Notes: generated from the letters alone by a model not told the origin. Positions 4,935-58,335 are shown, numbered from the stretch's first letter. The stretch: 64,000 nucleotides of DNA from Candidatus Onthoplasma sp. (GCA_045126575.1 JBGVOQ010000005.1:19-64018); one strand, 5' to 3'. A program made the numbers and translations.

Positions 4935-7900
4935 TTAGTCATCTAAATCGTCAAATAATGCCGATTCATCAAAAGCCTGTTCAGACACTTCAGATTCATA
5001 ATTTTCTTGAATTTGGTCAAATTCAAGTGTAATATCTTCAAGTCCTACCTTATTTACAGGTTGAACAGCATCAAATTCTACTTCTTGGTCAGAAACTTCG
5101 TTGATTGACAACTCGTGTTGGTCAGCGGTTAAAATCTTAACGTCTAAGCCCAAACCTTGCATTTCCTTAACAAGCACTTTAAATGCTTCAGGCATACCAG
5201 GTTCTGGAATAGGCTCACCCTTAACGATTGCTTCATAAGTTTTAATACGTCCTTCAACGTCATCTGACTTAATTGTTAACATTTCTTGCAACAATCTACT
5301 TGCACCGTATGCTTCCAATGCCCACACTTCCATTTCACCAAAACGTTGTCCACCAAGTTGTGATTTACCGCTTAGAGGTTGTTGTGTAATCAAAGCATAT
5401 GTTCCAATACTACGTGCGTGGATTTTATCATCAACCATGTGGTTAAGTTTTAACATATACATCACGCCCACGTTAGTTTTGTTTTCAAATGGAAGACCTG
5501 TACGGCCATCATATAATTGCATATAGCCATCTTCTGGCAAGTTGTTTTGACGAAGAAGTTCTTGAATTTCCTCTTCTGTTGCACTATCGAAACTTGGAGT
5601 TGCAACCTTCCAGCCTAGATGCTTAGCAGCAAGACCTAGATGCATTTCCAATAATTGTCCCAAGTTCATACGAGATGGAATACCCATTGGGTTAAGCACG
5701 ATATCAACAGTTTCACCATTAGCCATAAATGGCATATCACTTTCTGGAAGAACAATTGATACAACACCCTTGTTACCATAACGACCTGCAAGTTTGTCAC
5801 CAGGTTGAAGTTTACGCTTTTGAGCGATGTAAATCTTAACCATCATATTTACGCCAGCGTCAAGTTCATCTTTATTCTTACGAGATAAGATTTCAACGCC
5901 AACTACCACACCTGCTTCGCCATGTTTAACCTTTAATGAAGTATTTTTAACTTCCTTAGTCTTTTCACCGAAGATTGACTTCAACAATCTTTCTTCTGGA
6001 GTTAAATCAGTTTCACCCTTAGGAGTTACCTTACCTACAAGGATATCACCAACTTTAACTTCGGTACCGATACGCACAATACCGTTTTCGTCCAAGTTCT
6101 TTAACGCTTCTTCACCTACACCTGCGATATCACGAGTAATTTCTTCATCACCAAGTTTAGTTGTACGAGCTTCAGTTTTAACTTGTTGGATAGATATTGA
6201 AGTAAATGCATCTTCACGAACCACTCTTTCGTTAACCAAAATAGCGTCTTCGAAGTTGTAACCTTCCCAGTTCATGAATGCTACTGTCATATTTTTACCA
6301 AGAGCAGCTTCACCATTTTGAGTAGAAGCGCCATCGGCAAGAACATCACCAAATTTAACTCTTTCGTTAGTATTAACGATTGGTTTTTGATTGAAGCAAG
6401 TTTTGTCGTTACTTCTTTCAAATTTTCTTAAATAATGATTAACTGTACGTCCATCATCATATTCTACTGTAATATAGTCACCACTTACGTAAGTTACCAC
6501 ACCGTCAGCGTCAGCAGTAATCATAGCACCACTGTCTTTTGCCAACTTATGTTCGATACCTGTACCTACAACTGGTGAATCAGCCTTGATTAGTGGAACT
6601 GCTTGACATTGCATGTTTGTACCCATCAACGCACGGTTTGCGGCACAGTGTTCGATAAATGGAATAAGGCCTGCTGTTTCAGAAATTAACTGACTTGGAG
6701 ATAGGTCCACATAAGTAATCATATCACGGCTAACTGACATAACTGTACCATTGTGACGGCAAACCACGTTTTCAGCAATGATTCTGCCATTTTCATCAAG
6801 TGGTTCCTTGGCTGTTGCGATATATTCATTAATATCCTCATCAGCCATCATAAATACGATTTCATCAGTAACCTTACCTGTACTATCTACCTTGCGGAAA
6901 GGAGATTCAAGGAAACCATATTCATTAATACGTGCGTAGCCTGCGATACTTGTCATCAAACCAATTGGTTGACCTTCTGGAGTATTAACCACACAGATAC
7001 GGCCATAGTGTGAGTGGTTAATATCACGAACTTCGGCACTAGCACGTTCCTTTTTAACACCGCCAGGTCCAAATGAACTTAAACGGCGCTTGTTTCTTAA
7101 ACTTGAAATTGGGTTAACTTGGTCCATCAAAGCTGAAAGTTGAGATGTGCTCATAAATTCCTTAAATGCCTTGTTGATATATCTAGCATTAACAACTTGA
7201 GCAGGTGTAATATCTGTTAAATCTCTACTTTGAAGTGTTTCACGCACTTGTGCTTGAAGTTTTGTCATACCCTTTCTAAATTCTTGGGTTAACAATTCAC
7301 CACAGCCAGCCACACGGCGGTTAGCCAAGTGGTCACGTTCGTCCAAATATCCGATACCATCAATTAAGTTTAAGTGATAGCTTACGGTAGCAATCATATC
7401 GTCAAGAGTAATTTCGTAGTTTTCCAACGCACGAGCATTTTGACGGATTGCTTCAAGGATATCTTCCTCTGTTTTGTTTTCCTTTAAAATTTCTTGCAAT
7501 AATGGATAGTAAACTAAACCATTGATTCCAAAATCCTTTGGATTGCAATTTACATAGCAAGTTAGGTCTACACGCTTGTTACCTACAACACGGATAACCT
7601 TATCATTATATATAATGTCTACGCTATTGATACCAGCATTTTGAATTTTATCAGCGATATCACGAGTGATAACTTCACCCTTAGCCACTACAACCTTGCG
7701 GCCAACCTTGATATCCTCAGCACTGATATGCTCTACGATACGGTTAGCAAGGCCTAACTTCTTATTAGTCTTATAACGACCAACCTTACCCATACTATAA
7801 TGTTGATGGTTAAAGAAACGGTCATTAATATATGACATAGTGTTAGATGGGCTAGGAATTTCGCCTGGACGTGTACGACGGCTAAATTCGATAAGCGCAT

Positions 7901-16946: not shown

Positions 16947-17140
16947 AATTTAATATAGGAGTGTAGCTCAGCAGGTTAGAGCACCACCCTGTAGCCGAGC
17001 AATTTATTGCGAACGCCAAGGTTCTTGAGTTTTACGAAAGGTTCTTCTAAGGTGTCACACCTTATCAGCCCTAAGTAACAACACAGCACCTAAACAATTT
17101 AATATAGGAGTGTAGCTCAGCAGGTTAGAGCACCACCCTG
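16947..17140 (+). repeat. perfect 45-bp direct repeat (16947..16991 and 17096..17140), period 149 bp
   Basis: AATTTAATATAGGAGTGTAGCTCAGCAGGTTAGAGCACCACCCTG occurs twice. The repeat is 10 nt of upstream flank plus tRNA-Ile positions 1-34. Checked base by base. Confidence 0.95.
16957..16991 (+). pseudogene. truncated tRNA-Ile 5' half (positions 1-34 only)
   Basis: Identical to the 5' half of the functional tRNA-Ile up to anticodon base G34, then diverges (TAGCCGAGC...). No 3' anticodon-stem strand, T-arm or acceptor 3' strand follows. Confidence 0.85.
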
Positions 17141-17182
17141 ATAAGGTGGGGGTCGGTGGTTCGAGTCCACTCATTCCTACCA
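17106..17182 (+). tRNA. tRNA-Ile (anticodon GAT)
   Basis: Acceptor AGGAGTG/CATTCCT, D-arm GCTC..GAGC, anticodon arm CCACC-CTGATAA-GGTGG, T-arm GGTGG-TTCGAGT-CCACT, encoded CCA. Confidence 0.9.
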
Positions 17183-17189
17183 GATAATT

Positions 17190-17213
17190 TCACTCGTTAT
17201 GAGTGATTTTTTT
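17190..17213 (+). terminator. Rho-independent terminator of the tRNA unit
   Basis: TCACTC-GTTAT-GAGTGA, followed by TTTTTTT. Confidence 0.7.
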
Positions 17214-17214
17214 A

Positions 17215-17245
17215 TTAAAAAACCATAATCTTAATAATTATGGTT
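17215..17245 (-). terminator. Rho-independent terminator after the P-loop gene
   Basis: Minus strand: AACCATAAT-loop-ATTATGGTT, followed by TTTTT. Confidence 0.65.
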
Positions 17246-17262
17246 CCCTTTTACTTGCGTTA

Positions 17263-18138
17263 TTATAAATTAACATTTGATATATTAACTTGTTCTATTT
17301 CATTGCATATCAATTTTAATTCGTTCCAGTCAATAGTATCTCCATCAATAAGTCCAGCCACATTTATAGTTTGGGTTGCCAATTCATGATTTTGACCTGA
17401 TTTAATAAGTAAATTATTTATTTCTAAATTACCTCCTGCCTTTTTCATTGAAGTTTCGTAATTTTGAGGCAATTCTAATTCAACAATATTTTTGAATGAT
17501 TTGAGCGCTTCCTGAATGTGTTTAAATCCAACTTTTGTTAAATCAATATGTTGAATATATAGTTTTTCATCTATTTCTCTAAATTGTTTGTCTAATTTAA
17601 GATATTCATCATCTAAAGAAATTGACATACCCCCACCCATGTCTATAATGCAAGCAAAATCTATCTGCTGAGTTAATGCTTGTAATAGTTGGTTTTCAAA
17701 TTGTTTTTGATAAAAATGCCAGGCAGCAATTCCAAATTTATCTCTTAAAAAATTTGATATTTGCTCATTATAACCTAAATCTTCATAGTTTGGGAGATTT
17801 GGAAGTAACGTTCTCATTTCAATTTGCCTATCACAAACCCAGTCATCATTTTTTAATTTATTAATTTTTGCTTTTATTTCTTCTTTTTTAGAATCCTGAC
17901 AAGATATTAGTTCATTCTTCCAGTATTCAATATCCTCACGAATCCTTGTTTGCTGTTTTTTTATTTCTTCTATAGTTTTTGGACAATTTCTCATTATATC
18001 GGTCGTTATTACAGGCAAATTATTTCTTCTCGACAATTCACTAGAAATTAATGATTTGCCCGCTCCAATAGGGCCAATTAAAACAATTGACTCTTCACGG
18101 GCACGCTCGACTCCGATTCTTTCAATTTCATTAGTCAT
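17263..18138 (-). CDS. P-loop NTPase / kinase-fold protein of unknown function
   Basis: 291 aa. Walker A GPIGAGKS at residues 22-29, a later IIDMGGG motif reminiscent of shikimate/NMP-kinase folds, and a charged helical insert (residues about 55-100). It has its own promoter-like ATGACA-17-TAAAAT upstream. Confidence 0.55.
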   Translation of the reverse strand: MTNEIERIGVERAREESIVLIGPIGAGKSLISSELSRRNNLPVITTDIMRNCPKTIEEIKKQQTRIREDIEYWKNELISCQDSKKEEIKAKINKLKNDDWVCDRQIEMRTLLPNLPNYEDLGYNEQISNFLRDKFGIAAWHFYQKQFENQLLQALTQQIDFACIIDMGGGMSISLDDEYLKLDKQFREIDEKLYIQHIDLTKVGFKHIQEALKSFKNIVELELPQNYETSMKKAGGNLEINNLLIKSGQNHELATQTINVAGLIDGDTIDWNELKLICNEIEQVNISNVNL

Positions 18139-26426: not shown

Positions 26427-26747
26427 ATGTATTTAAAATATATAAGCAACAGCGCAATAGATAAGTTTGTAAAGTCGCACTTTTGCCCTAATGCTAGGAC
26501 TATTATGGTTGATAACGAGGAACGCACTTACGTTAATGTGTTTACCACGTTATTAGATACAACCCTACATATTAATGATTTTGAATGCATTAATATGGAT
26601 ATAGATAAGGACTATCATGAAATATGGCGTAAATTTATGATTAAACAACTAGATACTATAGACCCTACCAAGAGGCTAGGTACCAGATATTGTCGTGATT
26701 TGCAGGACCATTTAGAACACTGCGACATTTGTACACATTCTAGATAA
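26427..26747 (+). CDS. hypothetical protein (106 aa)
   Basis: ORF with a GGAGGA RBS 10 nt upstream. No recognisable motif. Confidence 0.45.
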   Translation: MYLKYISNSAIDKFVKSHFCPNARTIMVDNEERTYVNVFTTLLDTTLHINDFECINMDIDKDYHEIWRKFMIKQLDTIDPTKRLGTRYCRDLQDHLEHCDICTHSR

Positions 26748-26749
26748 AG

Positions 26750-26783
26750 CAAAAACTTGGATTAACTTAATCCAAGTTTTTTG
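26750..26783. terminator. bidirectional terminator (106-aa gene / dnaJ)
   Basis: A-run, ACTTGGATTA-ACT-TAATCCAAGT, T-run. It lies between convergent genes. Confidence 0.75.
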
Positions 26784-27899
26784 TTACTTTAATTTTTTGT
26801 TGTATGTTTCAGTTTTAGGATAATCCTTAGCGCTGATTGCATTTTCAAGTTCCTTAACCAACTTTTTAGCGCCCTTATCCAAGTTCTTAGGCATTTCGCC
26901 TTTTAATGTAACAACCAAGTCACCGCTACCAAATCCACGTAGGAACTTAATTCCCTTGCCCTTTAGCGTGTATTTAGTATTAGATTGAGTTAAAGGTTTG
27001 ATATCTATGGTTGTTGTACCCTTAAGGGTTGGCACTTCCATCTGACCACCTAGCAATAGTGTTGTAAATGGAACATATACGTCTACATACAAGTTAAAGT
27101 CCTTACGCACCAATAGTTTGTGAGATTGCACCTTTACGTTGATATGCAAATCGCCTGGCACACCATTACTTGACACTACTTGCTCGCCTTCACCACGCAT
27201 ACGAATGGTTTGACCATCATCAATACCGGCAGGAATTTTAACCTTAACTTTTACGCTTTGCTGGCTTAATCCCGAACCGTGACAATGTTGACATTTTTCC
27301 TTAACAATCTTACCGCTTCCGCCACAAATCTTACAGTCCGTCATGCTAGCAACACGACCAAACAAGGTATTTTGCACAAACTGAACCTTACCTGTTCCAC
27401 CACATTCGGTACAAGTGTTTATTGCAGTACCAGGCTTAGCACCTGTTCCACTACAATGTGTACATTTTTCGCTACGATTGATAGTTATTTCCTTTTCAAC
27501 GCCAAATGCTGCCTCTTCAAATGATATTGTAATATCACTAACAAGGTCAGCGCCTTGCTCACGGCTAGATGCACCGCCACTGCGACCAAAGTTTCCGAAT
27601 ATATTAAACAAGTCTTCGAACCCACCTTCAAAGCCTTGACTAAATCCGGAAAAGCCACCGCCACCACCAAACCCTTGTGGGCCATCAGCACTACCAAATT
27701 GGTCATAGTTGCTACGCTTAGTTTTGTCGCTTAGCACCGAATACGCCTCAGAAATTTCCTTAAACTTTTCCTGAGCGTCCGCTTCCTTATTTATATCAGG
27801 GTGATACTTTTTAGCCAGGTTGCGATATGCCGATTTAATCTCATCATCACTAGCAGTTTTGCTCACTCCTAAAATTGAATAATAATCTTTGTTTGCCAT
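26784..27899 (-). CDS. dnaJ: molecular chaperone DnaJ
   Basis: 371 aa with a J domain carrying HPD (KKYHPDINK), a G/F-rich linker and four CxxCxGxG zinc-finger repeats. Confidence 0.95.
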
Positions 27900-28093
27900 A
27901 TTTATCCTTTATATTTTTATCAACTTTTCTTGACAAGAAAAGTTACAAAAGAACATTCTTTTATACTTTGTTTTTACAAATTAGTAAATTTAGTAAATCT
28001 TTTTAATCACCTTACCATACACAAGCAACAATGAATAATGCCTAAACATTATTCATTATTACACATTAGTTAAATTTAGGGGAAATTTAACTC

Positions 28094-29905
28094 CTATTCT
28101 ACGATAACTTCGTCATCTCCGCCATTGTTGTCGCTACCATTGTTAGCGTCACCTTGAGGTGCTTGTTGTTGCATATTTTGATACATGCGTGTAAACACTT
28201 CGTTAGATACAGCAGTTAAATCTTCAGTAGCTTTCTTTAATTCTTCAATATCTTCACTTGTTAAGTGTTTTTTAGCCTCTTCACAAGCGTCTGTTAGTTT
28301 TTTCTTGTCATCTTCACTTAGTTTGTCGCTATTTTCTCTAACAAGTTTTTCAATGTTCATAACGTTTGCGTCCAAAGTATTACGAGTATCTACCACTTCA
28401 CGGCGCTTTTTATCTTCTTCTGCAAATTGTTCAGCTTCTTTTACTGCCTTATCAATTTCATCATCACTTAAGTTTGTGCTAGCAGTGATAGTAATTTTTT
28501 GTTCCTTGTTAGTTCCAAGGTCTTTAGCACTAACATTAACAATACCGTTTGCGTCAATATCAAATGTAACTTCGATTTGAGGAATACCACGTGGAGCTGG
28601 TGGAATACCAACTAGTTGGAATTTACCTAAAGTCTTGTTTTGTGCTGCAAATTGACGTTCGCCTTGTAATACGTGGATTTCAACCCCTGGTTGATTATCT
28701 TGAGCTGTACTGAATACTTGACTCTTTTTGGTAGGGATTGTGGTATTACGTTCAATTAACTTTGTAAATACACCACCCAATGTTTCAATACCAAGTGATA
28801 ATGGAGTAACGTCTAGTAGCAATACGTCCTTAACTTCGCCACCAAGTACACCTGCTTGGATAGCAGCACCCATAGCCACACATTCGTCTGGGTTAATACC
28901 CTTAAATGCGCTCTTACCAATTTCTTTTTCCAAAGCTTCAACCACGCTAGGAACACGTGTAGAACCACCAACTAGAACGACACTATTAATATCACTTGCG
29001 CTTAATTTAGCATCAGCCAATGCCTTACGAGTGCACTCTAATGTCTTGTTGATTAGGTCACTAATCATATTTTCAAATTTAGCACGTGATAGATTGTATT
29101 CCAAGTGCTTTGGACCAGTTGCGTCAGCAGTAATAAATGGTAGGCTAATAGTTGTATTTGTTAATGTAGAAAGTTCAATTTTAGCCTTTTCTGCTGCTTC
29201 CTTAAGTCTTTGCATAGCAAGTTTGTCGTTGCGAAGGTCAATACCATTAGTATTTTTGAAATCTTCAACTAATAAATCCATAATGCGATTATCAAAGTCG
29301 TCACCGCCAAGGCGAGTATCACCATTGGTAGATAGCACTTCAAATACGCCATCACCAATTTCAAGTATACTTACGTCAAATGTACCGCCACCTAGGTCAA
29401 ATACAAGTATTTTTTGGTTCTTTTTATCTTCCTTATCAAGGCCATAAGCAAGTGCCGCAGCAGTTGGTTCGTTAATAATACGAAGTACTTCAAGACCAGC
29501 AATCTTACCAGCGTCCTTAGTTGCTTGACGTTGGCTATCGTTAAAGTATGCAGGAACTGTAATAACTGCTTGAGTTACTGGAGTGCCAAGATAAGCCTCT
29601 GCATCAGCCTTTAACTTAGATAAAATCATAGCAGAAATTTCTTGAGGTGAATATTGTTTATCATCAATCTTAACCTTGTAATCTGTACCCATTTCACGTT
29701 TGATTGAAATAACTGTTTTGTCAGGGTTAGCCACTGCTTGACGCTTTGCTACTTGACCTACAAGACGTTCACTATCCTTAAAACCTACCACACTAGGAGT
29801 AGTTCTACCACCCTCACTGTTGGCAATAACGGTTGGATTACCACCTTCGATAACCGCAACACATGAATTTGTTGTACCTAAGTCGATACCAATAATTTTT
29901 CCCAT
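28094..29905 (-). CDS. dnaK: molecular chaperone DnaK (Hsp70)
   Basis: 603 aa with [17 protein letters not shown] and VLVGGSTR motifs. Confidence 0.97.
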
Positions 29906-30002
29906 AATAATTCTCCTTAAATTAAAATCTATATAAACTCAACTTTTTATTAATAAAAGTTGTAAAAATCTTGTTAATTGTTTTAGCATACTGCAAAACT
30001 TA

Positions 30003-30335
30003 CTACTTTAATAAATCTTGCCTTTCATGGTTGTCTATATAAAAAGGTTTCCAATATTCGCTTAAATTTATTGAATATCCTTGACCTTTAATAACAAACT
30101 TGTCATTTGCTACTGTTACATAGTGAAATGAAGGGTTTGTGGCTCCCTTATAGCTTAAATACATGTACACGGGTTCACCATTAAACATTTTAATCTCGCC
30201 ATTTGAGCACTTGCCAGTTTTGGTATTTTTAACCTGCATACCGCACCACTCAAAACCTTCGGATTCGAGAAAATTTCTAATATCTTTTAAAGTGTATTTC
30301 TTTATAAATCTTTTTTTCTGTATTGTTGTTTGCAT
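30003..30335 (-). CDS. hypothetical protein (110 aa) inserted between grpE and dnaK
   Basis: ORF with a GGAGA RBS, starting 22 nt after the grpE stop. No family recognised. Confidence 0.5.
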   Translation of the reverse strand: MQTTIQKKRFIKKYTLKDIRNFLESEGFEWCGMQVKNTKTGKCSNGEIKMFNGEPVYMYLSYKGATNPSFHYVTVANDKFVIKGQGYSINLSEYWKPFYIDNHERQDLLK

Positions 30336-30357
30336 AATATCTCCAAGCCTCTAAAGT

Positions 30358-31173
30358 CTACTTACACACTATTACTTGTGAATAACGTATAACTTTATCA
30401 CCCATTGTAAAGCCTTTAAAGCATTCTTTAATTATATCACCACTTTCATGCTCGGCACTTACTTCACTTCCAATTGCTTGGTGGAAGTTAGGGTCAAATT
30501 TGCCACTTACATCAATTGCTTTTACTCCAATCTTCTCAAGTGTTGAAAGTATTCCTTTTTCAATATATTGAATACCCATAAGAGTATTTGGGTCTGTGAT
30601 ATATTCGGTAGCCATTTTAAAACTATCTAGTGCTGGCAAGAATTCAGTTATTGCTTGGTTAAAGCCGTTTGAATAAGCCTTAGCTATATCATTTTGTGTA
30701 CGTTTGCGATAGTTGTCAAATTCTGCACGTAGGCTAAGCAGTTGCTTAAAGTACGCATCGGCAGTACTTTCTTCCAACTTTTCACCGCAACCACATTTAC
30801 ATTGTTCATCATCTAGCACGTCTTGTGCATCTTCCTCCACTTCTACCTTTTCACAATCACATTCTTCACAACACTTGTTGTCAGAAGTGCAATCGCAATC
30901 ATCGCCGCAAGTACAATGCTCGTTGCAGTCACAAGATTGTTCGCTACAGGTGCAATCTTCATTACACTTTTCTTCATCACCACACTTACAATCGTCACCA
31001 CAAGTATAATTATCTCCGCAATCACACTTTTCACCATCATGACATTTACAATCTGTTCCGCAAGTGCATTCATCACAACATTTGTTATCCTCAGTACAGT
31101 GACAATCTTCGCCACAAGTGCATTCTGGGCAACATTTGCAACCTTCGTTTAAATCTTTTTCTAAATCTTCCAA
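30358..31173 (-). CDS. grpE: nucleotide exchange factor GrpE with Cys-rich N-terminal extension
   Basis: The C-terminal roughly 140 aa form a canonical GrpE core (LRAEFDNYRKRTQ..., ..GF.MGDKVIRYSQV.V). TTG start at 31173, 7 nt after AAGGAG and 14 nt after the hrcA stop. The N-terminal roughly 130 aa contain 34 Cys by my count. Confidence 0.85.
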   Translation of the reverse strand: MEDLEKDLNEGCKCCPECTCGEDCHCTEDNKCCDECTCGTDCKCHDGEKCDCGDNYTCGDDCKCGDEEKCNEDCTCSEQSCDCNEHCTCGDDCDCTSDNKCCEECDCEKVEVEEDAQDVLDDEQCKCGCGEKLEESTADAYFKQLLSLRAEFDNYRKRTQNDIAKAYSNGFNQAITEFLPALDSFKMATEYITDPNTLMGIQYIEKGILSTLEKIGVKAIDVSGKFDPNFHQAIGSEVSAEHESGDIIKECFKGFTMGDKVIRYSQVIVCK

Positions 31174-31187
31174 AGTCGTTTCTCCTT

Positions 31188-32213
31188 TTAATCTTTATGA
31201 CTCATATTTTCCGCTTGGCTAACAATAAACTTTAACGCCGCAGCCAAACTTCCGTAATCCACACGCTTAGGTCCCACAAGCGCAAGCGAAGCAATGCTAA
31301 CTCCATCAATAATAATAGGAGCACTTAACATCATACCGCCCTTAAGTTTGTCATTTTGATTTTCATCACCAATAACAAAATTAAGTTCACTACTATCGCC
31401 CACCGCATTAATAACCTCATCACCATCTTCAAGGAACGAAAGCACGTCTTTAGCCTCATCAAACTCGCTAGAAGTAATGTTGTTTAGCATACGTGTAGTA
31501 TTTTCACTAGAAATATCTAACTTGGTTTTAACCACATTTTGTAAAGCGGCAGTCACACTGTCAATAAGTGTTTTAAAGTTAAACATTTGAGCGCCAGCCC
31601 TTAAACAAACTTCAGCCACATTGTCCACCATATATTTAATGGTTTTTCCACTAAATTGCTCGGTTAGGTAACTAGAAGCATCTTTGCAAGCATCTTTGTC
31701 AATATCTGGGTCAAGGCTTAGGTTATCATCAATAACACCAGCGGTTGTTTCAACTAATAGCAAAGCATCTTTTTGGATAAGTGGAATAATTTTAATATCC
31801 ACAATAGTCAAATTTTCGATACCGTGCTGTACCAATATTGTTGGATAGTTTGTTACCTTACTTAGTTTTTTAGCCAACGAGGATAATGTGCTTATAAGGT
31901 TGACACTTTTCACTTCATAATTATCCTTAACCTGTTGAAGCGATTTTGCATTAAAAGTTTTGCTAGTAAGAATATTATTAACATAACATCTGTAAGCCAA
32001 ACTGGTTGGCACACGTCCGCCCGAAGTGTGTAATTGTTGCAAATATCCCATTTGCTCCAACGCATTTAACTCGTTGCGAAGTGTTGCTGTGCTTACATCA
32101 CTAAACTTAATACTAAGACTTGCACTAGTAATTGGCTGAGGCTTTTTAATATACTCGTCAACCGCATAAAGCAAAATGTCCTGTTTACGTTTACTTTTAA
32201 ACTCCACACCCAT
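31188..32213 (-). CDS. hrcA: heat-inducible transcription repressor HrcA
   Basis: 341 aa with the HrcA N-terminal winged-helix pattern (..ITS..L........S.ATLRNEL..LE..GYL...HTSGGR.PT). First gene of the operon, directly preceded by CIRCE. Confidence 0.9.
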   Translation of the reverse strand: MGVEFKSKRKQDILLYAVDEYIKKPQPITSASLSIKFSDVSTATLRNELNALEQMGYLQQLHTSGGRVPTSLAYRCYVNNILTSKTFNAKSLQQVKDNYEVKSVNLISTLSSLAKKLSKVTNYPTILVQHGIENLTIVDIKIIPLIQKDALLLVETTAGVIDDNLSLDPDIDKDACKDASSYLTEQFSGKTIKYMVDNVAEVCLRAGAQMFNFKTLIDSVTAALQNVVKTKLDISSENTTRMLNNITSSEFDEAKDVLSFLEDGDEVINAVGDSSELNFVIGDENQNDKLKGGMMLSAPIIIDGVSIASLALVGPKRVDYGSLAAALKFIVSQAENMSHKD

Positions 32214-32219
32214 CTCCTT

Positions 32220-32246
32220 TTAGCACTCTCAAATCACGACTGCTAA
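32220..32246. promoter_or_regulatory. CIRCE operator (HrcA binding site)
   Basis: TTAGCACTC-N9-GACTGCTAA against consensus TTAGCACTC-N9-GAGTGCTAA (one mismatch). It lies between the promoter and the hrcA start. Confidence 0.85.
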
Positions 32247-32250
32247 CACT

Positions 32251-32279
32251 AGTATATGCTTAATGCAAACAAATGTCAA
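32251..32279 (-). promoter_or_regulatory. sigma-A promoter of the hrcA-grpE-dnaK-dnaJ operon
   Basis: Minus strand: TTGACA (32279..32274), 17 nt, TATACT (32256..32251), immediately upstream of CIRCE. Confidence 0.7.
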
Positions 32280-32404
32280 CCATTTGTGCCAATTTTTTTT
32301 GTAAAATTTTGTAAAATTGTTAAATAAATACTATTTTGCTGTCGCCAGACTTAAATACCAACAAAAAATTAAGCAATCCAACCCATTGCTTAACTTTTAC
32401 AATA

Positions 32405-33658
32405 TTATGAAACTTGTTTGTTTGATTTAATTATAATAGGTTTATCATTACCTAGTATATAATTTTCATCAATAATGATTTTTTCAATATTTTGGTCAAA
32501 GTGACTAGTGTACATAACATCTAGCATACGTTCTTCCAATATTGTGCGCAAACCTCTTGCGCCAGTTTTTAACTCAATAGCCTTTTTAGCCACTGCCTTA
32601 ATGGCGGACTTGTCAAACTCAAGTTCGATACCATCCATTTTAAATAGTTGGATATATTGCTTTGTGATAGCGTTTTTAGGTTTGGTCAAAATCTTTTCTA
32701 GTGACTTTTCATCTAATGCTTCCAAACCTACCACCACTGGTATACGGCCAACAAATTCTGGTATCATACCATACTTAATCAAATCATGTGGTTGAATGCC
32801 CTTTACATTGTTTTGCGTATTTTTAATACTACGTGCATTTACATCTGCGCCAAAGCCCAATCCAGCATTACCGTTACGCTCACTAATAATCTTATCAAGC
32901 CCAACAAATGCTCCACCACATATAAATAATATATTAGTAGTATCAATCTTGATATTTTCCTGTTGAGGGTGCTTGCGTCCACCTTGAGGAGGAACACTAG
33001 CAATAGTACCTTCCAAAATTTTTAATAACGCTTGTTGTACACCTTCACCTGACACGTCACGAGTAATTGACACATTTTGACTTTTACGTGCAATTTTGTC
33101 AATTTCGTCAATATATATAATTCCACGTTCAGCCTTTGAAATATCGTAATCGGCATTTTGGATAAGTTTTAGCAAAATGTTTTCAACATCATCACCCACA
33201 TAACCCGCTTCGGTTAACGCAGTTGCATCACTAGCAGCAAACGGAACTTTTAACATCTTTGCCAGTGTTTTAGCAAGCAAAGTTTTACCGCTACCCGTAG
33301 GTCCTACAAGTAGCACATTACTCTTTTCAAGTTCTACCTCATCAACACCAGCCTTAGTTTTGGCACTTAGGTTGTAGTTAATACGTTTGTAATGATTGTA
33401 TACTGAAATTGCAAGTATTTTCTTTGCCTCATCTTGACCTACAATAAACTCGTCAAGTTTTGCCTTAATTTCTTGAGGTTTTGGCAACTCTAGGATTTCA
33501 TTATCACTTGACTTGGTTGTGTTTTCTGCCATAATTTGATGACACAAATCCACGCAATCCTTACATATAAAGCACTCACCTTCAGGGTTTGCAATTATGT
33601 TTTTTAAATTAGTTATCGCACGTCCACAAAACGAACAATTAGCATTTAATTCCTTCAT
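32405..33658 (-). CDS. clpX: ATP-dependent Clp protease ATP-binding subunit ClpX
   Basis: 417 aa with an N-terminal C4 zinc ribbon (CSFCGR...CKDC), Walker A GPTGSGKT and the IGF-loop region. Confidence 0.95.
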
Positions 33659-55698: not shown

Positions 55699-56169
55699 CT
55701 ATTTTAAAGTTTTACCGCACTTTTTGCAGTTATTTGCATCTAGGCTATTTTTGCAACCGCACTCGCACTTAATGTAACCCTCAACTTGTGCTCCACAGTT
55801 AGTACAAAACTCTGCATCTTCGTCTAACTTTGTTCCACAATTAGGGCACTTATTAACATTAACTGTACCAACAGCGCTATTGCCAACATCACTAACGTTG
55901 CCATCTTTAACCTTTATCATACTTCCGGCAGTTAGCATAATCATAATAGCAACCCAACCAAATGTTAAACCTAATAATGACAATACACCGCCAACTATTG
56001 CACGCCAAATTATTGCAGAAACTTTGGCAATAACTACGCCACGGACAATAAGTGCAACTCCACCAACAATCATCGCAAGTGAAATTACAAATATTATCAA
56101 GCCCAAAACCATCAAATGACCTTTATCGTGTCTATTTTCGCTATATGCGTTTTTATCAAGTTTTTTCAT
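55699..56169 (-). CDS. membrane protein with C-terminal zinc-ribbon pair (156 aa)
   Basis: Three predicted TM helices, then CPNCG...CTNCG and C.C.C...CKKCG zinc-ribbon motifs. AAGGGAGA RBS. It lies 13 nt after the upstream gene. Confidence 0.6.
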   Translation of the reverse strand: MKKLDKNAYSENRHDKGHLMVLGLIIFVISLAMIVGGVALIVRGVVIAKVSAIIWRAIVGGVLSLLGLTFGWVAIMIMLTAGSMIKVKDGNVSDVGNSAVGTVNVNKCPNCGTKLDEDAEFCTNCGAQVEGYIKCECGCKNSLDANNCKKCGKTLK

Positions 56170-56182
56170 AATATCTCCCTTT

Positions 56183-57217
56183 TTACATAGTAAGTGCTAT
56201 TGCAAGCACTGGAATACCTATCAATAATAAAATAAGTAGTACAAACAACGATATTTTTACAGGTGAACGTGGAACATTTCCTGCAACCTTTCCGTTTTGC
56301 CCATTCATAACATTTAAATATGATTTTTTATTATATTCATATCCAAAAAAGTAGGCTGGTAGTAGTGTATAATTATATACAATATTTGAATATGTTGGAT
56401 TAATAGTCAAACTATCGATTGATGAATATTTGCTTCTAATCCTAGATTCAATATCCCTAAGCATTTGTCTTTTAGCCACAATTTCCGCATCCTGCACCTG
56501 CTGATTGTAATAACTCACTGTATAGCCTTTAGTAATGTCGGCGTTATAATCCACACTTTTACTACAATCGTACGGCATAATATCCGCAATATCGCTTTGA
56601 GTAATCTTGTCATTTGACTCAACTATAATATTGTTATATTGCTGCTCAATTTTGCCAGAAAAACTACGATAGTGCGTAATGGTTCGTGTATGGCCTGAGG
56701 CAGTACGTTGTGTTGTGGTATAGCTTTGCCTTCCGGAATACGTTGCATAAACATTTCCATCAAACACAAATGCACTTAAATATGTTGCTCCCATATTATC
56801 CGCACGTAAATTGTTTTTAAACTTATTAGGTAAAAACTTACGTTTTTTGGTTCTTTCAACAAACTCGTTTTCGGCCTGTTCCTTGCTTATAGCAAAAGGA
56901 ATTATTTTTTCAGGTTGCAAGCCAGGTAAGTCCTTAAATGATGCTAACGAATTGGCTCCACAATACTTACATTTGGTACCAATATCATACTTGTCAAATA
57001 TAACCTGAGCGCCGCACGACTCACATCTATATGACCTATTTTCGTTTAACCATTGCTGAAATTTAATCTTATCAGGCTCCCACCCAATTGAATGTTTTGC
57101 CGTTTGGTTTGTAATATTAATTGGATACAATGTATCGCATTTAGTGCATTTTAAGCACTGATGCTGTGGACTAAACTCCACCCTTGCACCACAAGATTTG
57201 CAGTTGTTAATTTTCAT
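56183..57217 (-). CDS. TFIIB-type zinc-ribbon protein with C-terminal TM anchor (YdjG-like)
   Basis: I place the start at ATG 57217 (MKINNCKSCGARVEF..CLKCTKC; second ribbon CESCGAQV..CKYCG), overlapping the upstream TAA by 1 nt (TAATG). The C-terminus carries NGQNGKVAGNVPRSP plus a TM helix. Confidence 0.6.
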   Translation of the reverse strand: MKINNCKSCGARVEFSPQHQCLKCTKCDTLYPINITNQTAKHSIGWEPDKIKFQQWLNENRSYRCESCGAQVIFDKYDIGTKCKYCGANSLASFKDLPGLQPEKIIPFAISKEQAENEFVERTKKRKFLPNKFKNNLRADNMGATYLSAFVFDGNVYATYSGRQSYTTTQRTASGHTRTITHYRSFSGKIEQQYNNIIVESNDKITQSDIADIMPYDCSKSVDYNADITKGYTVSYYNQQVQDAEIVAKRQMLRDIESRIRSKYSSIDSLTINPTYSNIVYNYTLLPAYFFGYEYNKKSYLNVMNGQNGKVAGNVPRSPVKISLFVLLILLLIGIPVLAIALTM

Positions 57218-58335
57218 TAAACCTTTTCTCCGCATTCTGGACAAAACTTAGCATTTGCTCTTAATTTTTTACCGCATTTTTTACATACTTTTTCGCTAGT
57301 TAAACTTGCACCACAATTTGTGCAGAACTTTGTACCCTTATGCACCGCTTCGCCACACTTTGGACAACTTTCAGTTTGGCTGCTTCCGCATTCTGGACAA
57401 TATTTAACCCTAGGGTTAATTGATGCTCCACACTTTACACAAGTACGTTTTGAAGCACCGTCCTTAACACTAGACATTGCGTTTGCAAACATATTTCCCA
57501 TAGTAGCGCCTGCACCAAGACCGACACCAATGCCTGCCATATTGCCACCATTTGGGTTCTTAGCCGCATCACGCATAGCGGTAGCCGCTTGATATTGAGC
57601 GTATGTGCCCATTTTATCGCCAAGTATTCCAAGTTTGCTACGCTCGTCAAGCGCCTTTTCAACTTCTTCTGGAAGTGATAAGTTCTCAACCGTAACCTTG
57701 CATAACTTTAAGCCCAACTTATTAAATTCTTCTTGTGAAACGCTTACGATTTGAGTTCCAATTTCCTTATAGTTGGCAGCCAAATCTAATGCCGGAATTC
57801 CAGATTGTGCAATAGCGTCACTTATATTTGAAATTAATATTGCCTTGCATTGAGTGGTTAAGTCTTCAACCCTATAAACTGGGTTAGTACCAAACACTTC
57901 ACGCATAAATGTTTTACCATCTACGACTTTGTAACTAAATGTACCGTACCCACGCAAACGAACAGAACCAAAGTCAGCATCACGCATCATAATAGGATTT
58001 TGAGTACCCCATTTTTGACCTAAGAATTGCTTAGTGTTAATAAAATACACTTCGGCTTTAATTCTGCTGTTAAATCCAGTAGGAAGCGACATCATCTTAG
58101 TAATAATAGGAATATTTTCCGTATTTAACTTATATGTTCCAGGGCCAAACACATCTGCAATTTGTCCCTTGTGCACAAACACAGCCATTTGTGACTCACG
58201 CACAATAAGTGTAGAACTATTCATAAGTTCTTCACGCTTATCCATTGGGTGACGATATACTAAAATATCCTTAGAACTATCCTTCCACTCCAACACCTCT
58301 AATAATTGTCTTTTCATAAAACTAAATAAACCCAT
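57217..58335 (-). CDS. SPFH-domain protein (YdjI / COG4260-like) with three C-terminal double zinc ribbons
   Basis: 372 aa. The N-terminal roughly 260 aa match the 'virion core protein-like' SPFH pattern (MGLFSFMKRQLLEVLEW.D......Y......E....S.L.V.E.Q.AVF...G...D.F.PG.Y.L.T.N.P). The C-terminus reads CVKCG..CPECG, CPKCG..CTNCG, CKKCG..CPECG. Confidence 0.7.
   Translation of the reverse strand: MGLFSFMKRQLLEVLEWKDSSKDILVYRHPMDKREELMNSSTLIVRESQMAVFVHKGQIADVFGPGTYKLNTENIPIITKMMSLPTGFNSRIKAEVYFINTKQFLGQKWGTQNPIMMRDADFGSVRLRGYGTFSYKVVDGKTFMREVFGTNPVYRVEDLTTQCKAILISNISDAIAQSGIPALDLAANYKEIGTQIVSVSQEEFNKLGLKLCKVTVENLSLPEEVEKALDERSKLGILGDKMGTYAQYQAATAMRDAAKNPNGGNMAGIGVGLGAGATMGNMFANAMSSVKDGASKRTCVKCGASINPRVKYCPECGSSQTESCPKCGEAVHKGTKFCTNCGASLTSEKVCKKCGKKLRANAKFCPECGEKV

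Follow-up and report, generated by a model that had tools for sequence, protein, structure and literature searches.

Here we describe a GrpE protein with a large cysteine-rich N-terminal domain, encoded in a 64,000-nucleotide (nt) stretch of Candidatus Onthoplasma sp. (GCA_045126575.1 JBGVOQ010000005.1:19-64018; hereafter the window, to which all window coordinates refer). The protein comprises 271 residues, divided between an N-terminal head, in which residues 12–129 (nt 31140..30787) hold 34 cysteines, and a canonical GrpE core. We assign a probability of roughly 0.6 to the reading that the head is a metallothionein-type metal–thiolate domain, made with the heat-shock response and mounted on an otherwise normal nucleotide-exchange factor. 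Such a fusion probably couples the DnaK chaperone to the buffering of metal or oxidants. A first-pass annotation of the window had already pointed to a metallothionein-like cluster fused to GrpE, and its cysteine count and motifs hold (CTCGEDCHC at residues 18–26, CTCGTDCKC at 36–44 and CTCGDDCDC at 87–95, together with KCCDEC and KCCEEC); the whole protein has 36 cysteines. The combination of a metallothionein-like head with GrpE is apparently a new and undescribed domain architecture. Full-text searches of the literature returned no paper linking GrpE to a cysteine-rich or metallothionein-like N terminus, a 2025 review of GrpE-like factors makes no mention of metal or zinc (PMC12987570), and the public annotation of carriers reads simply 'nucleotide exchange factor GrpE'.

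Organization of the grpE gene and its product

The grpE coding sequence (30358..31173, minus strand, as are all segments of the head and core given below) starts with TTG directly after hrcA, the stop codon of which occupies 31188-31190. The start is preceded by the Shine–Dalgarno sequence AAGGAG (31182..31187, minus strand), read directly from the sequence; the intervening spacer, previously given as 7 nt, is 8 nt on recounting. No in-frame ATG separates the start from the core, as the first-pass annotation had stated, the first such codon being number 187. Behind the head, Pfam recognizes a GrpE core over residues 133–271 (30361..30777; PF01025, E = 7.3e-33, score 114 bits, cut-off 25.8). 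The NCBIfam GrpE equivalog models also match this region (E = 3e-29), below their strict per-model cut-offs. An AlphaFold2 (AF2) model computed from the family alignment predicts the GrpE fold for the core, with a long helix (residues 136–190), a second helix (residues 194–213) and a beta domain, at a predicted local distance difference test score (pLDDT) of about 90.

The head opens with the leader MEDLEKDLNEG (residues 1–11, 31141..31173), in which M1, E2, L4 and E5 are near-invariant; across a 44-sequence alignment of orthologues the N terminus conforms to M-E-[DE]-L-E-K. Cys unit 1 follows (residues 12–44, 31042..31140), a segment of 33 residues with 13 cysteines, CKCCPECTCGEDCHCTEDNKCCDECTCGTDCKC. 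Its invariant positions are C12, C14, C18, C20, G21, C24, C26, K31, C32 and C36; every other cysteine of the unit is at least 90% conserved. A degenerate CxC array of variable length (residues 45–80, 30934..31041) corresponds to the indel-rich part of the alignment. Cys unit 2 (residues 81–107, 30853..30933; CDCNEHCTCGDDCDCTSDNKCCEECDC) contains 11 cysteines and, by direct reading, is identical to unit 1 at 18 of its 27 residues. The DNA repeat family formed by the two units (D2) has 73% identity, and the second unit represents an old internal duplication. An acidic, cysteine-free linker (residues 108–124, 30802..30852), variable or gapped in orthologues and containing a GTG codon at position 112, leads to the motif CKCGCGE (residues 125–131, 30781..30801), which precedes the long GrpE helix. 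The C, C, G, C, G and E of this motif are each at least 90% conserved, and C.CGCG is present in 100 of 110 orthologues. CKCGCG lies 5–10 residues before the dimer helix, which begins at residue 136 in the AF2 model.

Cysteine accounts for 29% of residues 12–129 (34 of 118). The first 135 residues are very acidic and include a single tyrosine as their only aromatic residue, four leucines and three valines; they offer no hydrophobic core. AF2 renders the head entirely as coil, with no secondary structure and a pLDDT of 34–62. Together, the low model confidence and the lack of a hydrophobic core would fit a domain that folds only around metal.

Conservation of the cysteine-rich head

Orthologous GrpE extensions were sought among 5.8 billion proteins. 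The search returned 922 GrpE relatives, and the statistics that follow were computed on the best 120 clusters. The same kind of head is carried by 110 of these 120 clusters, with a length of 80–197 residues (median 122) and 12–48 cysteines (median 29). The composition of these heads is 24% cysteine, 33% aspartate or glutamate and 8% lysine or arginine. The in-frame fusion is thus conserved in more than 100 orthologous clusters, in agreement with the first-pass view that the extension is no obvious annotation artefact.

In the 44-sequence alignment the cysteines of the head are invariant or at least 90% conserved, and the residues between them vary. We compared the window gene with orthologous DNA from two loci in metagenome-assembled genomes (MAGs), L001 and L002. 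Synonymous sites are saturated among the three, and the nonsynonymous divergence (dN) is 0.2–0.3 in the N-terminal part versus 0.07 in the core. Of the 27 columns in which all three sequences have cysteine, 19 mix the codons TGT and TGC. Tandem Repeats Finder detected no array in the DNA, and the internal direct repeats are only 61–73% identical; on these two grounds recent slippage or an assembly duplication was rejected.

The start codon is likewise conserved. Orthologues begin with TTG or ATG at MEDLEK, the residues of which are near-invariant and thereby fix the start at this position, and the L001 and L002 loci share the same AAAGGAG-N-TTG-GAA-GAT arrangement. Initiation at the internal GTG (codon 112, nt 30840), which the first-pass annotation had named among the findings that would undo its interpretation, is not borne out: the surrounding segment is deleted, absent or variable in orthologues, V112 is missing in both L001 and L002, and the upstream MEDLEK start is conserved. 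Because the cysteine columns are invariant despite saturated synonymous divergence (dS), no tandem repeat is present, the start is conserved and the GTG112 segment is not, we discard three explanations: an artefact, neutral drift of a low-complexity sequence, and initiation inside the gene. The comparative sequence data show that the head is genuine, in frame, translated and under purifying selection.

Metallothionein-like character

The placement of cysteines in the head goes beyond what its composition would produce, as judged from 5,000 composition shuffles. CxC occurs 14 times (6.8 ± 2.2 in shuffles) and is enriched, whereas CC occurs three times (9.5 ± 2.2) and is depleted. CxCxxxCxC is found four times against 0.14 expected, a number reached in none of the 5,000 shuffles. 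These figures, together with a unit shared with standalone cysteine-rich proteins (see below), uphold the earlier remark that the spacing resembles that of metallothioneins. The head has the general attributes of that class, namely a cysteine content within about 15–35%, few aromatic or hydrophobic residues and ordered CxC motifs. It is not, however, a small standalone protein: in every bacterial case seen it is fused to GrpE, and for this reason we refer to a metallothionein-like domain and not to a metallothionein protein.

Among the metallothioneins compared, the head most resembles the plant type-1 class, whose members have about 12 cysteines and bind Cu+, Zn2+ and Cd2+ (PMC9922688). When aligned to Arabidopsis MT1a, residues 12–52 of the head match all 13 MT1a cysteines (z = 5.8 versus shuffles), a result to be read as a lead and not as proof of homology. 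In this alignment the head also has the CxC-only pattern, the CxCx3CxCx3CxC arrangement and the approximate number of 12 cysteines per protein that characterize the type-1 class. Wheat Ec-1 gave a weaker alignment (z = 3.4). SmtA (z = 0.41), human MT2 and the Hsp33 zinc centre (z = 0.19) gave no alignment above shuffles, and MymT (z = 2.2) was not significant.

A shared unit in standalone proteins

Metagenome contigs were scanned with a pattern derived from the head alignment. Seven contigs (L083–L089) encode standalone proteins of 178–340 residues that are 35% cysteine and contain up to 120 cysteines. Two of the contigs carry the label human gut metagenome, and examples of the genes lie at 4461-5441 of L087 and 4401-5420 of L089. 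Each is composed of 5–10 tandem units of about 33 residues, CKCGDxCxC[TS]KDHKCCEEC, with a copy number that differs among contigs. Cys unit 1 of the GrpE head aligns to this unit without gaps, as it does to the head of a second GrpE lineage described below. The pattern common to the two is CxCCxECxCGxxCxCTxDxKCCxxCTCxxxCKC. In the gap-free alignment of the GrpE head with the standalone unit, all 13 cysteines and 9 of the 20 other residues are identical, and an identity of 9/20 outside cysteine was reached by 2 of 500 shuffles in which the cysteines were held fixed.

These standalone proteins were at first read as bacterial metallothioneins, an assignment that their neighbours overturned. The adjacent genes encode Ras, an E2 ubiquitin-conjugating enzyme, LMBR1 and Glyco_transf_49 (a dystroglycan-type glycosyltransferase), from which we conclude that the contigs are eukaryotic. 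The arrays thus have the appearance of giant metallothioneins from a protist of the gut. A further contig of 1,138 bp (L091, from JGI Ga0180434) has a 301-residue open frame at 234-1136 with repeated CACCPECKCVDCKCTPENKCCEQCPCD units and a Gly/Asp-rich spacer. This unit is almost the GrpE head consensus; the contig is too short for context or origin. Taken together, the sequence matches indicate that the head is built on a metallothionein-type repeat unit that exists separately elsewhere. Its sharing between a bacterium and a eukaryote may reflect descent, transfer or convergence.

Distribution among GrpE lineages

The window clade consists, among the matches listed, of uncultured 'Clostridia bacterium' MAGs from animal guts (roe deer rectum, rabbit and others); this taxonomy is coarse. 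Because they come from gut metagenomes and MAGs, the carriers are presumably anaerobes. Relatives that share the unusual core motif of the window protein can be arranged in steps of cysteine number (0, 5, about 14 and then 12–48), and there are relatives with only 4–6 cysteines (CxCx3-4CxC) next to the helix. The closest cysteine-free relatives (P0111–P0118) have plain acidic tails.

A second large lineage was recovered by searching with the GrpE of contig L082, the core of which is 32% identical to that of the window protein and the head 62–70% identical. All of its 120 best clusters carry a head of 45–60 residues with 6–20 cysteines, followed by a Lys-rich linker. The operon of this lineage has the order hrcA-grpE-(68 residues)-dnaK-pepF (M3 peptidase)-dnaJ, and its members are labelled as Firmicutes/Bacillota bacterium MAGs. 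On L082 and on L092–L096 (gene at 5001-5699 or 5001-5651) the head has 15–20 cysteines and the linker reads KKDKKKHKKHD; one variant occurs on 34–35 contigs.

Heads of this type extend further. The 150 best GrpE matches among representatives clustered at 50% identity include 24 with at least six N-terminal cysteines, some up to 45, and P0260, P0266 and P0318 are listed as cysteine heads with added histidine runs. The 45 cysteines occur in P0257; P0318 contains CGKDCDCGC repeats, and the histidine runs of P0260 and P0266 are exemplified by HNHEHDHGHHHHHDHH and HDHKHE. The first-pass annotation had set the window gene apart from canonical bacterial GrpEs, the N termini of which it took to lack cysteine clusters. 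Cysteine-rich heads are, however, not unique to the window gene, being found in at least two large and several small lineages of uncultured Firmicutes. In a crude neighbour-joining tree built from 130 cores, the head trait requires at least 20 changes and is therefore patchy. The variety of heads suggests that GrpE proteins have repeatedly acquired or lost metal-binding heads.

Operon context

The gene order on the minus strand is a promoter-like site, a CIRCE operator (controlling inverted repeat of chaperone expression), hrcA, grpE, an open reading frame (ORF) of 110 residues, dnaK and dnaJ, which agrees with the CIRCE/HrcA heat-shock setting proposed by the first-pass annotation. The promoter-like site, TTGACA-17-TATACT (32251..32279, minus strand), is of the sigma-70 type and agrees with the consensus at 11 of 12 positions, the best score in 26500-32500; it is a consensus match only. 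Directly downstream lies the CIRCE element, the HrcA binding site (32220..32246, no strand assigned), with the sequence TTAGCACTC-N9-GACTGCTAA and one mismatch to the consensus. No match to CIRCE was obtained in 100 shuffles (0 expected by chance). The element lies 7 nt upstream of the start of hrcA (31188..32213, minus strand; Pfam HrcA, E = 2.8e-30), which directly precedes grpE.

After grpE come the 110-residue ORF, an unannotated member of a small-protein family (30003..30335, minus strand), and dnaK (28094..29905, minus strand), the translation of which is a typical Hsp70 and the orthologue of which is labelled HSP70 in related loci. The last gene is dnaJ (26784..27899, minus strand), with matches to Pfam DnaJ, DnaJ_CXXCXGXG and DnaJ_C and an ordinary CxxCxGxG zinc-finger domain. 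Terminator-like hairpins follow both dnaK and dnaJ on the 3' side, the latter at 26751-26781. The genes clpX, clpP and tig sit upstream of the hrcA operon, and the region is a housekeeping proteostasis cluster. The order is the Firmicutes-type hrcA-grpE-dnaK-dnaJ under CIRCE, and related loci keep it.

Proposed role of the head and alternatives

In the reading that we prefer, the first ~400 nt of grpE encode a metallothionein-type domain on a normal exchange factor, and the thiolates of this head would enclose soft metal ions (Zn2+, Cu+, Cd2+ and possibly Fe2+) in metal–thiolate clusters. At about three cysteines per divalent ion, by analogy with known ratios, each chain could hold some 10–12 divalent ions. 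Protein unfolding, which both metals and oxidants cause, would de-repress the HrcA regulon, with which grpE is co-transcribed. De-repression of the operon would then supply the thiolate buffer when it is needed, tethered to the DnaK machine that handles the damage. A less certain step is that a loaded, compact head and an empty or oxidised, extended head might differ in their effect on substrate release by DnaK. The N-terminal tails of GrpE bind the substrate-binding domain of DnaK and promote substrate release (PMC12915176), and GrpE homologues sense oxidation; on these grounds a gating role for the head, and above all for the two CKCGCG motifs at the base of a dimer, is plausible. We infer metal binding, the ion stoichiometry and any effect on DnaK.

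Several observations weigh against this reading. No metal transporter or metal-sensing regulator was found near the operon. The acidity of the head far exceeds that of classical metallothioneins. The cysteine number and the length vary freely, which points to bulk capacity over a precise switch and so weakens the regulatory part of the proposal. The window covers 64 kb of the genome, and a second, canonical grpE is possible elsewhere. Profile searches with the head alone gave no match in Pfam (E ≤ 10), NCBIfam or PDB, and a HMMER search of the 5.8 billion proteins likewise missed even the head's own orthologues; these negatives are uninformative and do not speak against the reading, because composition filters are blind to the head. 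The same type of search yielded no Pfam match at E ≤ 10 to Metallothio_2 or a plant metallothionein profile, a negative that is uninformative for the same reason.

The head could instead act mainly as a thiol/zinc redox switch, in which O2, H2O2 or HOCl would produce disulfides, zinc release and a changed dimer geometry or changed tail–DnaK contacts, placing DnaK in a holdase mode in the manner of Hsp33, Mge1 and GRPEL2. Redox sensors are documented within the GrpE family, Mge1 acting through Met155 (PMC3596242) and GRPEL2 through Cys87 (PMC6089081; reviewed in PMC12987570). The near-invariant CKCGCG stands so close to the dimer helix that two copies would be adjacent in a dimer, the relatives with 4–6 cysteines beside the helix look more like a site than a store, and the carriers are presumably anaerobes. 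Nevertheless, a switch does not need 12–48 cysteines of freely varying number, and no similarity to the Hsp33 zinc centre was detectable in the alignment reported above. Histidine is a metal ligand and not a redox group, and its addition to the heads of sister lineages speaks for metal coordination more than for disulfide chemistry alone. We regard a predominantly redox function as rather unlikely. It is compatible with the metallothionein-type reading, since a metal–thiolate domain is intrinsically redox-sensitive.

A more elaborate proposal, which we consider unlikely, makes the head a metal- and redox-gated switch of the Hsp70 system. The zinc-loaded head would be compact, and once oxidised or stripped of metal it would become a long disordered acidic tail or a CKCGCG cross-link of the dimer, altering nucleotide exchange or substrate release and leaving DnaK in a holding mode similar to that of Hsp33. 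Uncultured Firmicutes of the gut would have acquired or lost such a switch several times, perhaps by taking up a mobile unit of 33 residues that a gut eukaryote also has.

Binding of iron or iron–sulfur (Fe–S) clusters, which would link DnaK and GrpE to Fe–S maturation or iron buffering, appears improbable. PMC5516249 places mitochondrial Mge1 in Fe–S metabolism. Dense cysteines in an anaerobe could ligate iron, and one relative (L001) has suf-type genes 2 kb upstream of its hrcA, but neither the window nor L099 nor L092–L096 shows this neighbourhood. The closest pattern matches are metallothioneins, and CxC-x3-CxC spacing that lacks a hydrophobic scaffold is not a known Fe–S binding pattern.

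Finally, the notion that the cysteine stretch is non-functional, whether it arose by misassembly or slippage, by neutral drift of an expanding low-complexity sequence or as a leader left untranslated upstream of GTG codon 112, could draw on the low-complexity composition, the TTG start and the variable length among relatives, yet is effectively refuted, as judged from conservation, by the occurrence of the same head in more than 100 independent assemblies, by the invariant cysteine columns with mixed TGT/TGC codons at saturated dS, by the lack of a tandem DNA repeat and the divergence of the internal repeats, and by a conserved Shine–Dalgarno sequence, TTG and MEDLEK in place of a GTG112 that is deleted with its surroundings in orthologues.

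Other features of the window and related loci

The ORF between grpE and dnaK belongs to a family of about 100–110 residues with the conserved pattern Y.L.D[IV].[DN]FL...L.W ... W.[DE]F. In every locus seen of the first lineage, that of the window protein, the family sits between the cysteine-rich grpE and dnaK in 1, 2 or 6 tandem copies (range 1–6). Its sites are 30003-30335 (minus strand) in the window, 4815-6952 in L001, 4950-5461 in L002, 1250-1567 in L097 and 5720-6354 in L099. A family hidden Markov model (HMM) matched in lineage-1 loci only, always directly after grpE, and gave no match in about 90 other fetched loci, including those of the second GrpE lineage and of low-cysteine relatives. 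The ORF had no match in Pfam, NCBIfam or PHROG, and its single-sequence AF2 model (pLDDT 47) is unusable. Its product may be a partner of the cysteine-rich GrpE.

Within the 64-kb window grpE is the sole strongly cysteine-dense ORF. The remaining cysteine-containing ORFs encode ordinary zinc-ribbon proteins. Three adjacent genes at 55699-58335 (minus strand) encode proteins with several CxxC zinc-ribbon motifs each, and membrane segments are present in two of the three; these are ordinary zinc ribbons, unrelated to the GrpE head. An Rfam match to HPnc0260 (a Helicobacter antisense RNA) at 17144-17284 (minus strand) scores 59 bits, exactly at the gathering score, overlaps a tRNA gene on the opposite strand (17106-17179) and is probably spurious.

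Significance

GrpE is among the most studied co-chaperones, and the mechanistic role of its tail in substrate release is only recent. A conserved metallothionein-type head of 12–48 cysteines would add a new level of regulation or protection to bacterial Hsp70. Such heads, which occur in several independent lineages and hundreds of gut Firmicutes protein clusters, in some cases with histidine runs, would extend a list of bacterial metallothionein-like proteins that is so far very short. They also offer a defined, putatively metal-binding unit of 33 residues that is common to bacteria and a gut eukaryote. The head proteins are short and soluble, and hence amenable to direct expression, metal analysis and DnaK/GrpE kinetics.

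Comparison with known systems

The protein shares with canonical GrpE (PF01025, of the Escherichia coli and Bacillus subtilis type) the long helix, the helical bundle, the beta domain, an acidic tail and the position between hrcA and dnaK under CIRCE. It differs in the nature of the tail, usually a disordered, cysteine-free segment of about 35–80 residues and here a 125-residue domain with 34 cysteines.

Plant type-1 metallothioneins (metallothionein family 15, Arabidopsis MT1a) have the same exclusive use of CxC motifs, in the arrangement CxC-x3-CxC-x3-CxC, but are standalone eukaryotic proteins of 45–75 residues, whereas the head is fused to GrpE. The cysteine-rich proteins of the eukaryotic contigs L083–L089 and of L091 share the 33-residue unit; those of the eukaryotic contigs are standalone and Lys-rich, in contrast to the Asp/Glu-rich head of GrpE. 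BmtA/SmtA, PmtA and MymT are the only accepted bacterial metallothioneins, and act as cytosolic cysteine-based metal stores (PMC12193353). They are small standalone proteins with 7–10 cysteines plus histidine, controlled by metal sensors and not by HrcA, and alignment of the head to the Cys9His2 zinc-finger-like fold of BmtA/SmtA was no better than shuffles.

Other zinc–thiolate modules are known within chaperone networks. Hsp33 carries one in the heat- and oxidative-stress network, but as a Cys4 zinc centre, CxC-x(27-32)-CxxC, in a folded C-terminal domain, from which the GrpE head differs in cysteine density and position. DnaJ likewise contains a zinc finger; its CxxCxGxG motif is absent from GrpE residues 1–135 by direct reading and by the lack of a DnaJ_CXXCXGXG profile match, and is normal in the dnaJ of the operon. 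The mitochondrial factors Mge1 and GRPEL2 are GrpE-type exchange factors that respond to oxidants (PMC3596242, PMC6089081, PMC12987570). They sense through one methionine or one cysteine in or near the helix and have no appended multi-cysteine domain, unlike the GrpE described here.

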